Shown here piece by piece: positions 20,486 through 25,067 of a stretch of DNA of 33,164 bases (positions within the stretch are counted from its first letter, which is position 1; each line of letters starts with the position of its first letter). The position numbers were made by a program, and so were the translations under genes. Under the pieces are notes generated by a model. That model worked only from the letters and a program-made list of their open reading frames with translations. It searched no databases and had not been told where the DNA came from. Origin of the DNA: a virus. Its lineage: Duplodnaviria; Heunggongvirae; Uroviricota; Caudoviricetes. The DNA is taken from positions 1 to 33,164 of the IMG/VR virus record IMGVR_UViG_2534681774_000032; one strand, written 5' to 3'.

Positions 20486-20992
20486 ATCAGGTGAACGAGA
20501 GCCATAGCCGCGCATCCGATATCTGGCGCGAAGTGGCCTCGCTGTTTCGCCCACCCAGCCGGTTACCAGTAGCGGAAGCCATCAGGCGTTATATGCGGGT
20601 ACCACGGGGAGCCAATACTTCCGGTCCGTGGGAGTCATCGTTGACGCCCTATATGATTGACCCCATTAATACATTATCAGCCCGTGAATATGACGCGGTG
20701 GTGTTTGTGGGACCTGCGCGAACCGGGAAAACCGAAGGGCTGATTGATGGCTGGATTGTGTACGGCATCATCTGTGATCCGGCGGATATGCTGGTGGTGC
20801 AGATGACTGAGACGAAGGCGCGTGAGCATTCCAGAACGCGTCTTTCCAGAACGTTTCGCCACAGTCCGGAGGTCAGCAAGCGCCTCAGTCCTTCCCGTAA
20901 TGACAACAACGTCCACGATAAAATGTTTCTTGACGGCTCCTTCCTGAAGATTGGCTGGCCGTCGATCACTGTATTTTCTTCTTCGGATTACC
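20482..20992 (+). pseudogene. Terminase large subunit, N-terminal fragment (ATPase), interrupted by an IS66-family insertion
   Basis: Walker A FVGPARTGKTEG; reading frame runs into IS sequence after ...FSSSDYR at 20992 and resumes in frame at 23447 after the duplicated target. Confidence 0.85.
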
Positions 20993-21029
20993 GTAAGCGT
21001 GCAGCAAGAACCGTATTGACGGGGATGTG

Positions 21030-22568
21030 TTATTCAGTCGGCAGTGCTACGCGCCAGGGGAGCAGTTCGCCGACCCGGTTTATCGGCCAGTCGGCTATGA
21101 CGTCAAGGACATAGCGGAGGTAGCTTTCTGGCTCCACTCCGTTCAGTTTGCACGTCCCGATCAGGCTGTACAGCAGCGCTCCCCGCTCTCCTCCATGATC
21201 CGAACCGAAGAACAGGTAGTTTTTGCGGCCCAGACTGACCATCCGCAACGCATTTTCAGCGATGTTATTGTCCGCCTCAGCCCAGCCATCATCTGCATAG
21301 TACGTCAGCGCCGGCCACTGGTTCAGGGCGTATGCGAACGCTTTCGCCAGTTCTGAGTGTCGCGACAGGGTTTTCATCTTTTCACGCAGCCAGCTTTCCA
21401 GGGATTTCAGCAGCGGTTTCGTTTTCAACTGACGTTCGGCAAGGCGCTGCTCCGCCGTCATTCCCCTTATCTCTGCCTCGATGGCGTACAGTTCGCCGAT
21501 CCGTTTCAGCGCTTCCTCCGTCAGGGCTGACGGGGTGCGAACGTGCACATCGTGGATTTTACGGCGGGCGTGAGCCCAACAGGCGGCTTCCGTTATCCGG
21601 CCATCCCGGTACAGCTCGTTGAACCCGGCGTATGCATCCGCCTGCAGTACACCACTGAACCCCGCAAGATGGGTCTGCGGATGGATGCCTTTTCTGTCCG
21701 GGCTGTAAGCGAACAACACCGCCGGCGCCAGCGTTGACCCGGCGTTACGGTCGTCACGAACGTAGGTCCATAACCGCCCGGTCTTCGTTTTCTTATTGCC
21801 TGGCAACAGCACCGGGACAGGCGTGTCATCAGCATGGAGCTTACCGTCAGTCAGCACATAGTCCTGAAGCGCTTCTTCCAGCGGTGACAGTAGCCGGCAG
21901 CATGCATCCACCCAGCCCGACAGCAGTGAACGACTCAGCTCCACGCCCTGGCGGCCGTACATTTCAGACTGGCGGTACAGCGGGGTGTGCTCTGCATACT
22001 TTGAGATCAGCACGCGGGCCAGCAGCCCCGGTCCTGCGATACCCCGCTCGATGGGCCGTGAAGGCGCGGGGGCCTGCACGATGGCATCGCACTGAGTACA
22101 GGCATGCTTTTCACGTACAGTCCGGATAACCCGGAAGGCGCTGCGCATCAACTCCAGCTGTTCGGCGGCATCCTCACCCAGATAGCTCAGTGAGCCTCCA
22201 CATTCCGGGCAGCATGATGCTGCCGGCAGCAGCCGTTTTTCATCGCGGGGGAGTGATTCGGGGAACGGTTTGCGGGTGCGGGTTTGACGCAGCGGGCGCT
22301 GCACGGCCGGGTCGTCAACCCGACCGGTAAGGGTATCACTTTCTTTCTGAAGTGCCTTCAGGTCAGCTTCCATCTGTGCGATACGACGGGAGACTTTTTC
22401 GGAGCGGCTGCCGAAGTTCATCCGGCGCAGCTTATCCAGCTGTGCCTGCAGATGGTCTATTTCGCGTTCACGCTCGTTCAGCTTTTCCAGCAGGGCACGG
22501 TTCAGCGCCTCCTGTTCGGCAAGGAGACGTTTCAGTGCATTGATATCGTCAGGAAGTGAGCTGCTCAT
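21030..22568 (-). CDS. IS66-family transposase (TnpC, orf3)
   Basis: 512-aa ORF with N-terminal coiled-coil/leucine-zipper, CCPECGG...C..C zinc-finger-like motif and DDE-type core. Confidence 0.85.
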
Positions 22569-22616
22569 ACCGGGTATATTACCAGGCTCATTCAGCGTCG
22601 ACCAGGATAAAGAGGC

Positions 22617-22964
22617 TTACAACATAGTCAGGGACGTAAGCAGTCTTTTAGGCTGCCGCCAGTCGATACCTTCCAGCAGCATCGCCAGCTGTGCCGGTGT
22701 GAGGAACACTTTGCCATCCCGGGCTGACGGCCAGGCGAAGCGGCCGCGCTCCAGCCGTTTGGTCAGCAGACACAGTCCATCGCCGGTAGACCAGAGGAGC
22801 TTTACCTGACTGCCATTACGCCCACGGAAGATAAAAACGTGACCTGACATCGGATCGTCTTTCAGCGTCGTCTGCACCTTTGCCGCCAGGCCGTTGAAGC
22901 CGTTTCTCATATCGGTGATGCCAGCGACCAGCCAGATCTTTGTCCCTGATGGTAATGGGATCAA
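22617..22964 (-). CDS. IS66 accessory protein TnpB (orf2)
   Basis: 115-aa ORF MIPLPSGTKIWLVAGITDMRNGFNGLAAKVQ... typical of IS66 orf2; stop overlaps the orf1 start. Confidence 0.8.
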   Translation of the reverse strand: MIPLPSGTKIWLVAGITDMRNGFNGLAAKVQTTLKDDPMSGHVFIFRGRNGSQVKLLWSTGDGLCLLTKRLERGRFAWPSARDGKVFLTPAQLAMLLEGIDWRQPKRLLTSLTML

Positions 22965-23365
22965 CGTTTGAGCTCCCGTATCAGCAGGTTCAGGATATTT
23001 TCGCTGATGGCACCATTCAGACGGAGTGATCCGTGCCGGAACGTCACTTCACAGCTGATATTGAGTGATTCAGGTGTCGCAGCAGCTACAGGTTGTGACC
23101 GGGGGGAGGTTGTAGGGACAACATCTTCGGCATCAAGTGTTATCGGGAGCAGCTCAGGCACGTTGTTTTCTGTTGTTGAAGGAGGACGTAGTTTTCCTTC
23201 GCGCCAGTACTGGCGCCACTTGAACAGCAAATTATCGTTGATCCCATGCTCACGAGCGAGTTGCGCTACGGAGATCTCTGGTCGATGCGAGAGTTCAACC
23301 ATTTTGATTTTGAACTCAACGGGATAATTAGGGCTTTTTTTACGCACTGCGGTTAATGATTTCAT
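22961..23365 (-). CDS. IS66 accessory protein TnpA (orf1, HTH)
   Basis: 134-aa ORF with HTH segment ISVAQLAREHGINDNLLFKWRQ; first gene of the IS66 operon. Confidence 0.75.
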   Translation of the reverse strand: MKSLTAVRKKSPNYPVEFKIKMVELSHRPEISVAQLAREHGINDNLLFKWRQYWREGKLRPPSTTENNVPELLPITLDAEDVVPTTSPRSQPVAAATPESLNISCEVTFRHGSLRLNGAISENILNLLIRELKR

Positions 23366-23446
23366 GGATAGCGTCCACCATATTTGGTGTCCACTATTCT
23401 CTCAGGAATTTCAGGATCTGCCAGACGGTGCTGAGACGACGCTTAC

Positions 23447-25067
23447 GGATTACCGTCGTGTGGCGCTGACGGATTATGACCGTTTCCCTGAAAACGTGGA
23501 CGGGGAAGGGGATGCCTTCACCCTGGCATCAAAGCGTACCACCACCTTTATGTCCTCGGGGATGACCCTGGTCGAGAGTTCGCCGGGGCGGGATATCACT
23601 GACACCAAATGGCGCTGTGGCGGCGCACATGAGGCACCGCCAACAACGGGGATCCTGTCACTGTATAACCGGGGAGACCGCCGCCGGTGGTACTGGCCGT
23701 GTCCGCACTGCGGGGAATATTTTCAGCCGGTGATGGATAACATGACCGGATACCGGAATAACCCGGATTTTGTGGCTGCCGGTCAGGCTGCCCGTCTGAT
23801 GTGTCCGCATTGTCGCGGGCTGATTGCCCCTGAGCAGAAACGCGAACTGAATAACAAAGGGATCTGGCTTCGTGAAGGTGAACGGGCGGTGGCGGACGGC
23901 AGTATCACCGGAACGCCACGAAATTCCCGGATTGCGTCATTCTGGATGGAGGGGCCGGCTGCGGCGTTTCAGACCTGGGAACAACTGATTTTTAAACTGC
24001 TGGCGGCAGAAGAAGAGTATGAGCGAACCGGCAGTGAAGAGACCCTGAAAGCGGTGGTGAACACCGATATCGGACGCCCCTATCTGCCCCGTTCAGCCAC
24101 GGAACAGCGTAAAAGTGAACTGCTTGAACAGCGTGCCGAGCCGTTTCCCCGGCGATCTGTGCCGGATGGTGTGCGTTTTATTGAGGCAACGGTTGACGTA
24201 CAGGGCGGTAAAAATCGCCGTTTTGTTGTGCAGATCACCGGATACGGAGAGCAGGGGGAACGCTGGATTGTTGATCGCTATAACATCCGGCATTCACTGC
24301 GCTGCAGTCCCAACGGTGAAAGTCTGCCGGTTGATCCGGCGGCATATCCGGAGGACTGGGATTTGTTGCTGACGGATGTGTTCCATAAAACATGGCCGCT
24401 GGCTTCTGATCCGGATGTGCGCATGCGTCTGATGGCCATGGCGGTGGATACGGGAGGGGAAGCCGGGGTGACAGATAACGCCTATCGTTTCTGGTGTCGT
24501 TGCCGGAGTGACGGACTGGGCAACAGGGTGTTTCTGTTCAAGGGGGATGGACTTCGCCGTGACAGGCTGATTAACCGTACCTTCCCGGATAATACCGGCA
24601 GAAGTGCCCGCCGTGCCAGAGCCAGTGGCGATGTCGCGCTGTGGCTGGTTCAGACGGATGCGTTTAAGGACCGTGTAAATAATGCCCTGTGGCGTGACAC
24701 ACCAGGGCCGAACTATATCCACTTTCCCGACTGGCTGGGGCGATGGTTTTACGATGAGCTGACCTATGAAGAGCGCGGCAGTGACGGAAAATGGCGAAAA
24801 CCGGGCAGGGGAGCTAACGAGGCGTTTGACCTGCTGGTTTATGCGGATGCGCTTGCCGTTCTGCATGGTTACGAAAAGATCCGCTGGCCCTCCGCACCGG
24901 ACTGGGCACAGCGGGAAACGTGGCTCGTCTTCCCGCAGGAGCGTTCTGGTGAAACGGTATCCCCGGAACTGACGGCCGGGGCAGAAAAACGCCGTCGCCG
25001 GAAGAAAAAACTGCGGACGGAGCGTGCGGAAGATAATCCATGGATAACATCAGGAGGCTGGTTGTGA
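23447..25067 (+). pseudogene. Terminase large subunit, C-terminal fragment (nuclease/portal-binding region)
   Basis: In-frame continuation DYRRVALTDYDRFPENVDGEG... after the IS; ORF-track ORF 23364..25067 begins inside IS sequence. Confidence 0.85.

Follow-up and report, generated by a model that had tools for sequence, protein, structure and literature searches.

ISEc22 inserted in the large terminase gene of a lambda-like prophage

The interrupted terminase gene

The stretch of DNA analysed here (the window, 33,164 bp) carries a lambda-like packaging module. An intact small terminase subunit gene of PHROG 141 is followed by the large subunit gene, terL, and further downstream by an adaptor (PHROG 118) and a portal (PHROG 21) gene (Table 1). 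terL is a pseudogene in the window, where no single uninterrupted coding sequence was found and a 2462-bp split lies after codon 170. The 5' frame enters an insertion sequence (IS) at 20992/20993, runs on for 40 codons and stops at 21114. When 20482-20992 was joined to 23455-25067, removing 2462 bp (the IS plus one copy of a flanking repeat), a single 2124-bp ORF of 707 aa was obtained, equal in length to the intact gene of strain 602687 and reading ...FSSSDYRRVALTDYDRF... across the former junction. Only this reconstituted sequence shows the domains of a gpA-type TerL, namely GpA_ATPase (PF05876, 2.3e-81, residues 45-308) and GpA_nuclease (PF20454, 8.3e-83, residues 330-648). The same IS-terminase junction is found in two complete RefSeq genomes, O111:H2 strain 12A and FDAARGOS_1059, in which PGAP flags a pseudogene.

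The break lies inside the ATPase domain. The Walker A motif GPARTGKT (residues 77-84) is on the 5' fragment, and the region aligned with the lambda gpA Walker B (the VAGYDE equivalent) is just downstream of the break. The 3' fragment thus holds the remaining ATPase domain, including the aligned VALTDYD, and the whole nuclease domain. Lambda gpA shares both Pfam families and aligns end to end with the reconstituted protein (E = 2e-18), its residues 76-83 (KSARVGYS) opposite the prophage Walker A, and the order of small subunit, large subunit, W-like adaptor and portal is also that of lambda. In contrast, lambda gpA has 641 aa and the small subunit is of the Nu1 type in lambda and of the DUF1441 type here. 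A sequence search of PDB chains with the reconstituted terminase found nothing at E <= 0.01, and the motifs were therefore placed by BLASTP alignment to lambda gpA. That alignment, at only 24% identity, served to map the Walker B and catalytic positions ascribed to the lambda protein.

An in-frame ATG at 23364, within the IS, opens a 567-aa hybrid ORF (23364-25067) with no obvious ribosome-binding site. Walker A is absent from this ORF, and the nuclease region and the region for portal docking are both retained in it.

Table 1. Positions of the element, its target site and the neighbouring terminase genes in the window
Feature	Position	Strand	Basis
Terminase small subunit gene (DUF1441), intact, directly upstream of terL	20009..20485	+	Pfam DUF1441 1e-48; PHROG 141 2e-64
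terL 5' fragment, codons 1-170 and first base of codon 171	20482..20992	+	ORF reading; PGAP 'incomplete; missing C-terminus' in 12A and FDAARGOS_1059
Target-site duplication, left copy GGATTACC	20985..20992		String check; single copy at the empty site in strain 602687
ISEc22 (IS66 family), 2454 bp	20993..23446	-	100% identity over 2454 bp to PGAP-labelled copies
Terminal inverted repeat, tnpC-proximal, GTAAGCGTGCAGCAAGAACCGT	20993..21014		String check
tnpC, DDE transposase, 512 aa, intact	21030..22568	-	Pfam DDE_Tnp_IS66 9e-107, LZ_Tnp_IS66, zf-IS66, DDE_Tnp_IS66_C
tnpB, IS66 Orf2-like accessory protein, 115 aa	22617..22964	-	Pfam TnpB_IS66 (PF05717) 1.6e-38
tnpA, HTH accessory protein, 134 aa, intact	22961..23365	-	Pfam HTH_Tnp_1 9e-12
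Terminal inverted repeat, tnpA-proximal (reverse complement GTAAGCGTCGTCTCAGCACCGT)	23425..23446		String check
Target-site duplication, right copy GGATTACC	23447..23454		String check
terL 3' fragment, rest of codon 171 to stop	23455..25067	+	PGAP 'terminase gpA endonuclease subunit, incomplete; missing N-terminus' in 12A and FDAARGOS_1059

The ISEc22 element and its target site

Over its whole length the inserted element matches, at 100% identity, copies in unrelated contexts that NCBI PGAP labels 'IS66-like element ISEc22 family transposase' in RefSeq. Its three genes lie on the minus strand, against phage late transcription. They are consecutive, in the order tnpA-tnpB-tnpC, and the TTG start of tnpB overlaps the tnpA stop (TTGA). 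TnpC has the domains of an IS66 DDE transposase (PF03050, 9.2e-107; PF13007; PF13005; PF13817) and is the WP_000099160.1 of relatives, and the tnpA product is the WP_000839179.1 of strain 12A. Elements of the IS66 family have imperfect terminal inverted repeats that begin 5'-GTAAGCG, and they produce 8-bp target-site duplications. Both features are reportedly given by Han et al. in 2001 and by ISfinder, and they were checked empirically on other copies of the element. The tnpABC organisation is that described for the family (PMC6778807).

The ends agree with this assignment. Both termini start GTAAGCGT. Compared with the reverse complement of the opposite end, each gives an IS66-type imperfect inverted repeat, with 8 perfect nucleotides at the outset and 15 matches in the first 22. 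On each side the element is directly abutted by GGATTACC, which occurs exactly twice in the window, either strand counted; a match of 8 bp flanking two fixed ends has a chance probability of 1/65,536. Both duplication and inverted repeats were located by direct string checks, a default-ranked repeat search having buried them among chance repeats. The same IS ends were found in four other contexts, and a perfect 8-bp duplication flanks three of the four copies fetched. The sequence-only reading had described a complete IS66-family element with an intact 8-bp duplication that splits the large terminase gene, and had stated that removal of 2462 bp restores the frame; all of this is confirmed, with every coordinate exact.

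ISEc22 copies occur in many E. coli genomes, with a median of 3 matching places per genome with any match and a maximum of 29. The copy in the window shows no difference from ISEc22 as named through the PGAP-labelled copies: the full 2454-bp sequence, the three proteins (WP_000839179.1, WP_000612626.1 and WP_000099160.1), the ends and the 8-bp duplication are the same, and only the insertion site is particular to the present lineage. With three intact ORFs identical to those of widespread copies, it would be expected to be competent for transposition. A literature search on ISEc22 returned passing mentions only, mostly in papers on antimicrobial resistance and plasmid genomics.

Loss of the large terminase and its alternatives

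In the proposed sequence of events, the gpA-type terL of a lambda-like prophage received a transposing copy of ISEc22, and the 8-bp target was duplicated. The protein is cut after residue 170 of 707. Walker A stays on a 210-aa fragment whose last residues come from the IS, and the Walker-B-aligned region and nuclease domain stay on a fragment that has no native start. No observation speaks against this structural part of the reading. With these parts separated, the prophage is very probably left without a functional large terminase. For this reading, an ISEc22 insertion in a gpA-type terL with an 8-bp duplication and loss of the functional enzyme, we put the probability at about 0.96. Loss of packaging is strongly indicated by the domain architecture. 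The prophage would be unable to cut cos or to package its own DNA, and it may still excise, replicate, express its late genes and lyse the cell. It is probably confined to its host lineage, as an element that does not package.

The defect could be real and yet irrelevant if a co-resident prophage supplied a compatible terminase, so that the element is still packaged and transferred. A precedent is Sp4 of O157:H7 Sakai, likewise a lambdoid prophage of pathogenic E. coli with an IS in a packaging enzyme gene and further defects. Despite its disrupted nu1, Sp4 is packaged, apparently by the terminase of Sp14, whose cos is near-identical (PMC2669165). In the present prophage neither the small subunit gene nor the sequence upstream of it is damaged, which favours such rescue. 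However, in Sp4 the small subunit gene is interrupted and here it is the large one, by an IS66-family element, and whereas Sp14 can complement as a sibling in Sakai, the two complete relatives yielded no sibling terminase. A query with the 3' part of terL hit one place per chromosome in 12A and FDAARGOS_1059, even in a distant blastn mode, and no second terminase of the gpA type was found there down to ~65-70% nucleotide identity, so that no cognate helper is visible. This search covered these two close relatives at the nucleotide level, the window's own genome lying outside the complete-genome collection. Within the prophage no other large subunit gene is annotated. An alternative terminase elsewhere in the prophage, which the sequence-only reading had named as grounds for abandoning the defect, was therefore rejected, and so, for the two relatives at that level, was one elsewhere in the genome. 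Moreover, a second insertion, of IS679 in tail gene K of the relatives, means that infectious particles would need further complementation. Rescue by a helper is accordingly judged unlikely.

Far less probable is a terminase that still works, either as a split enzyme reassembled from the Walker A and Walker B/nuclease fragments or through the hybrid ORF. Both fragments are still open reading frames, an in-frame IS-borne ATG precedes the 3' one, and plus-strand late transcripts would extend across the IS, where there are only weak terminator-like hairpins. Against this, the break falls inside a single ATPase fold (Pfam GpA_ATPase, 45-308), the hybrid ORF has no Walker A, and no Shine-Dalgarno-like sequence precedes ATG 23364 (TTAATGATTTCATG). 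PGAP treats both pieces as pseudogene fragments, and the 3' piece already carries R518C relative to the intact allele. Just as improbable is that the hybrid, an IS-derived leader joined to terminase from residue 169, is expressed as a dominant-negative subunit and that its retention throughout the lineage reflects a selected defence in place of simple decay. If this were so, it would poison packaging by superinfecting or co-resident phages with the same terminase type, for example VT1-Sakai-type Stx phages.

Least credible of all is an assembly or sequencing artefact, a possibility raised in the sequence-only reading, in which a repeat was mis-joined into the terminase gene: ISEc22 is multicopy and such repeats can be misplaced in draft assemblies, but we reject this explanation because the identical junction is present in two complete genomes produced and assembled independently by different laboratories (12A and FDAARGOS_1059), and a mis-join would not create a perfect duplication of the element's typical length at its exact ends.

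Lineage and state of the prophage

The interruption of terL by ISEc22 is not confined to one strain. At least three genomes (the window's, 12A and FDAARGOS_1059) carry the insertion and are 5-6 SNPs apart across 32 kb. Since the junction is common to these related genomes, the insertion is inherited within the lineage and is lineage-old rather than strain-new; the event would date to an ancestor of the small lineage that they form. A recent insertion had been suggested on account of its intact duplication and intact IS ORFs. Both hold for the window, but 'recent' has to be qualified, and tnpA in FDAARGOS_1059 has suffered a later 1-bp deletion.

The empty site is also represented. In 533 genomes a 600-bp sequence rebuilt across the junction runs without interruption, and two of these match it at 100% identity. 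The comparison with related prophages that the sequence-only reading had proposed is provided by strain 602687 (NZ_CP189657.1), whose prophage has GGATTACC once and a 2124-bp terL free of interruption, the product of which is WP_001077619.1. Its gene order from integrase to tail is the same, with 99.8-99.9% nucleotide identity to the window (99.9% over 20 kb upstream), and the reconstituted terL differs from its allele by 2 nt and 1 aa. The 602687 prophage is without the ISEc22 insertion but has a lesion of its own, in that the loss of 8 bp shifts the frame of the portal gene. More widely, a query with 1613 nt from the 3' part of terL gave 98.6-98.7% identity to the same portion of the gene in deposited phage records, among them VT1-Sakai, CP-1639 and Stx2a-converting phages, and in VT1-Sakai and CP-1639 the insertion is absent. 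The host prophage is lambda-like and related to these two phages. From the similarity to Stx phages an stx cargo might be expected, but none is annotated in the near-identical 12A prophage, which covers 793-33164 of the window.

The terminase is not the sole lesion. IS679, also of the IS66 family, interrupts tail gene K beyond the end of the window in both 12A and FDAARGOS_1059; in the latter it overlaps the empty site by 8 bp, and by analogy with that genome its place in window numbering would be about 35871. In the window, the tape-measure gene has A5 in place of A6 at 33133-33137 and may be frameshifted. ISEc22 would thus be one of at least two IS66-family insertions on the prophage, and for this reason we regard the event as IS-driven prophage decay of an ordinary, already known and annotated kind. 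It adds a further example to the well-documented inactivation by IS elements of lambdoid morphogenesis and packaging genes in pathogenic E. coli. Its significance beyond bookkeeping is small, although the ISEc22 junction can be used as a lineage marker for a small O111:H2-related clade.

No sigma-70-like sites turned up when 19500-25300 was scanned for promoters. In the same interval 13 weak terminator-like hairpins were counted against 5.9 +/- 2.7 expected, from which no conclusion on polarity was drawn. The cargo, lysis and immunity functions had been described as intact, and at the level of ORFs they are: the repressor, cro, Q-like, holin, lysozyme, Rz-like, SIR2, methylase and esterase frames are all intact in the window. 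The prophage thus carries a SIR2-like gene and a DNA methylase that looks like an orphan, together with three tRNAs and a NanS-p-like esterase, whose gene is placed upstream of those for lysis.

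The interrupted terminase gene

The segment between the two copies of GGATTACC (20985-20992 and 23447-23454), for which a string check of both strands of the whole 33,164-bp window gave no third occurrence, is 2454 bp long. It is an IS66-family element with a full tnpA-tnpB-tnpC set. Both ends begin with GTAAGCGT when read inward, and the terminal inverted repeats are perfect over the first 8 nt and match at 15 of the first 22. The start codon of tnpB is a TTG, which overlaps the stop of the preceding ORF as TTGA, and the 512-aa ORF also contains the IS66 leucine-zipper, zinc-finger, and C-terminal modules (Pfam). 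The claim of the sequence-only reading, a complete IS66-family element inside the large terminase gene (terL) with an intact 8-bp target duplication, was thus confirmed by the three ORFs and their Pfam domains, the matching ends, and the exact coordinates of the duplication.

Features of the prophage discussed here (window coordinates)
Feature	Coordinates	Strand	Description
SIR2-like gene	8500-9531		stand-alone; Pfam SIR2_2 1e-5
DNA methyltransferase gene	13430-14488		N6_N4_Mtase; PADLOC MTase_II 2.8e-165
tRNA(CAU)	14529-14604		neighbour of tRNA-Arg(UCG)
tRNA-Arg(UCG)	14612-14688		ARAGORN call
tRNA-Arg(UCU)	14702-14778		neighbour of tRNA-Arg(UCG)
esterase-like gene	15267-17129		620 aa; DUF1737, SASA, DUF6645
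small terminase subunit	20009-20485		intact; DUF1441; PHROG 141
terL, left ORF	20482-21114	plus	stops inside ISEc22
ISEc22	20993-23446		IS66 family
tnpC ORF	21030-22568	minus	512 aa; Pfam DDE_Tnp_IS66, 9e-107
tnpB ORF	22617-22964	minus	115 aa; Pfam TnpB_IS66, 1.6e-38
tnpA ORF	22961-23365	minus	134 aa; Pfam HTH_Tnp_1
hybrid IS-terminase ORF	23364-25067	plus	567 aa

When the segment was searched by megablast in 5,426 complete E. coli genomes, many strains proved to have copies 100% identical over its full length, annotated as 'IS66-like element ISEc22 family transposase' together with tnpA and tnpB. Four copies that lie in unrelated surroundings (cybC, gpJ, an IrmA-family gene, and a tail-U/S49-peptidase junction) were compared. 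All four are identical to the ISEc22 of the window and share its terminal bases exactly, and three have a perfect 8-bp duplication (AGACAATA, AGTAAATA, and AGATACGA). The boundaries and the duplication length therefore belong to the element and are no coincidence of the site. The flanks of the fourth copy, in strain 2013C-4187 (L006 293-300 and 2755-2762), are CATCAAAC and GTTTCAGC and do not form a matching 8-bp repeat. Here the IS separates part of a tail-U gene from part of an S49 peptidase gene, apparently after an IS-mediated rearrangement. Two IS copies within a prophage could have produced this arrangement by recombination or deletion. In other genomes ISEc22 also interrupts gpJ, the tail-U/protease region, and another terminase.

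The left ORF of terL consists of 170 native codons, a junction codon, and 39 IS-derived codons. The second ORF opens at an ATG inside ISEc22 and follows the terminase frame from the right-hand GGATTACC onward. As had been claimed, the frame halts at the element and resumes past the second duplication copy: when 20482-20992 is joined to 23455-25067, one 2124-bp ORF (707 aa) results, which reads ...FSSSDYRRVALTDYDRF... across the join. Pfam places GpA_ATPase at residues 45-308 (2.3e-81) and GpA_nuclease at residues 330-648 (8.3e-83) of this reconstruction, and the break after residue 170 therefore lies inside the ATPase domain. Compared with lambda gpA (24% identity, E = 2e-18, BLASTP), GPARTGKT (77-84) aligns with lambda KSARVGYS and VALTDYD, just past the break, with lambda VDVAGYDE; we take these lambda regions to be Walker A and Walker B, respectively. 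Each fragment would therefore hold half of the nucleotide-binding site.

The start codon of tnpA overlaps the ATG of the hybrid ORF on the opposite strand (CATG at 23363-23366). No Shine-Dalgarno-like sequence was found upstream of this ATG. Of the unusual readings only one is left, in which the IS-created ORF acts as a dominant-negative terminase fragment, and it is highly improbable. Besides the small subunit gene, the neighbours of terL are a W-like head-tail adaptor gene and an intact portal gene.

Empty site, lineage, and age

The 600-bp reconstructed junction is contiguous in 533 genomes, each time within a gene annotated as 'phage terminase large subunit family protein'; strains 602687 and 20AR0479 match it at 100% identity. 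The 602687 prophage is collinear with the window from the integrase to the tail genes (99.94% over 20.3 kb upstream; 99.8% over 9.7 kb downstream). Whereas an intact ISEc22 with its target duplication lies inside terL in the window, this sister prophage has one GGATTACC copy and an uninterrupted terL of exactly 2124 bp, which differs from the reconstruction by 2 nt and 1 aa. Codon 518 (window 24495) encodes Cys in the window and Arg in the intact allele, and R518C may postdate the inactivation of terL. The portal gene of the sister prophage lacks 8 bp (window 26722-26729) and is annotated as frameshifted, leaving this prophage with an intact terminase and a broken portal.

A 400-bp left-junction probe matched in full in just two genomes, strain 12A (O111:H2, England) and FDAARGOS_1059 (Braunschweig). 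In these two genomes the pieces of terL that flank ISEc22 are incomplete pseudogene fragments according to PGAP, and the shared junction excludes an assembly artefact. Over 32.4 kb, 5-6 substitutions and 1-2 indels separate the window from either genome, so that its source is a third genome, closely related to both. These matches also show that the insertion was inherited by a lineage and is not strain-specific. The suggested recent insertion holds on the evolutionary scale, since the duplication is perfect and the IS identical to copies elsewhere, but not at the strain level, where it is common to the lineage and as old as it. In FDAARGOS_1059, tnpA of the same copy has a 1-bp deletion (window 23101; about 22309 in its prophage, L003), where PGAP reports only a 92-aa 'transposase'. 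That copy has therefore been decaying since insertion.

Packaging and further lesions

Established knowledge of gpA-type terminases was used to infer loss of cos cutting and DNA translocation. The ATPase fold would be broken and the nuclease domain cut off from its native start; the prophage would then be unable to cut cos or translocate DNA, and would probably produce no filled heads of its own. The interpretation as a whole is supported, with three caveats: the insertion is as old as the lineage, there are further lesions, and the packaging loss is a prediction. That IS elements break packaging and morphogenesis genes of lambdoid prophages in pathogenic E. coli is well established; the IS itself, the class of event, and this very allele, as annotated in RefSeq, were already known. 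In O157 Sakai, an IS disrupts nu1 of Sp4, and yet Sp4 was packaged; the terminase most likely came from Sp14, whose cos is near-identical (PMC2669165).

An alternative terminase in the prophage, which the sequence-only reading had raised against itself, did not appear: no other large-subunit gene is annotated there. The 1613-bp 3' part of terL, 98.6-98.7% identical to the same part of terL in VT1-Sakai, CP-1639, and several Stx2a/Stx2d-converting phages, was used as query in megablast and in sensitive blastn reaching about 65-70% identity. Both found one terL-type place, and no second, in the 12A chromosome and likewise in that of FDAARGOS_1059; sensitive blastn picks up such genes in 2,256 other genomes. 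Down to that nucleotide identity, these two strains thus appear to have no cognate helper terminase.

Open ORFs matching proteins annotated as intact in relatives were found for the integrase, ExoVIII-type exonuclease, repressor, cro, O-like replication gene, Q-like antiterminator (DUF1133/Phage_antitermQ), holin, lysozyme, and Rz-like gene. Lysis and immunity functions thus look intact, as had been proposed, and the prophage may therefore still be capable of excision, replication, and lysis. The ISEc22 genes are oriented against late transcription, and its plus strand contains only weak terminator-like hairpins.

In both 12A and FDAARGOS_1059, tail gene K (C40 peptidase) contains a second IS66-family element, IS679 (2704 bp; L003 35079-37782, and 34838-37541 in the 12A prophage, L001). 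In window numbering it would lie at about 35871, past the end of the window and about 12.4 kb downstream of the terminase insertion. IS679 and the empty site share 8 bp in L003, and in strain 12A about 234 bp of phage DNA are missing beside the left end of IS679. In the tail tape-measure gene (start 32097), the window has A5 at 33133-33137 where 12A, FDAARGOS_1059, and 602687 have A6, shifting the frame 28 bp before the window end (...DEADKNGSGTRAG in place of ...DEADKKWQWYQSR). Either the frameshift is real or the shorter run is a homopolymer sequencing error.

Other genes of the prophage

The methyltransferase gene lies just upstream of the tRNA cluster, with no adjoining restriction gene annotated. 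The SIR2-like gene, between the replication genes and hokD, had only weak PADLOC matches (Aga_SIR2 and PDC-S21, about 1e-5 to 1e-6) and no PHROG match; it may be a defence gene carried by the prophage. The 620-aa protein with a SASA (sialate O-acetylesterase) domain, encoded between the tRNAs and the holin gene, has an architecture that would match the NanS-p esterases known from Stx phages. The near-identical 12A prophage has no annotated stx genes. Compared with the three relatives, tRNA-Arg(UCG) is changed at tRNA positions 21 (A to T) and 53 (G to A), the latter removing a T-stem pair. The predicted fold energy changes from -32.7 to -27.5 kcal/mol, and the ARAGORN call is kept.
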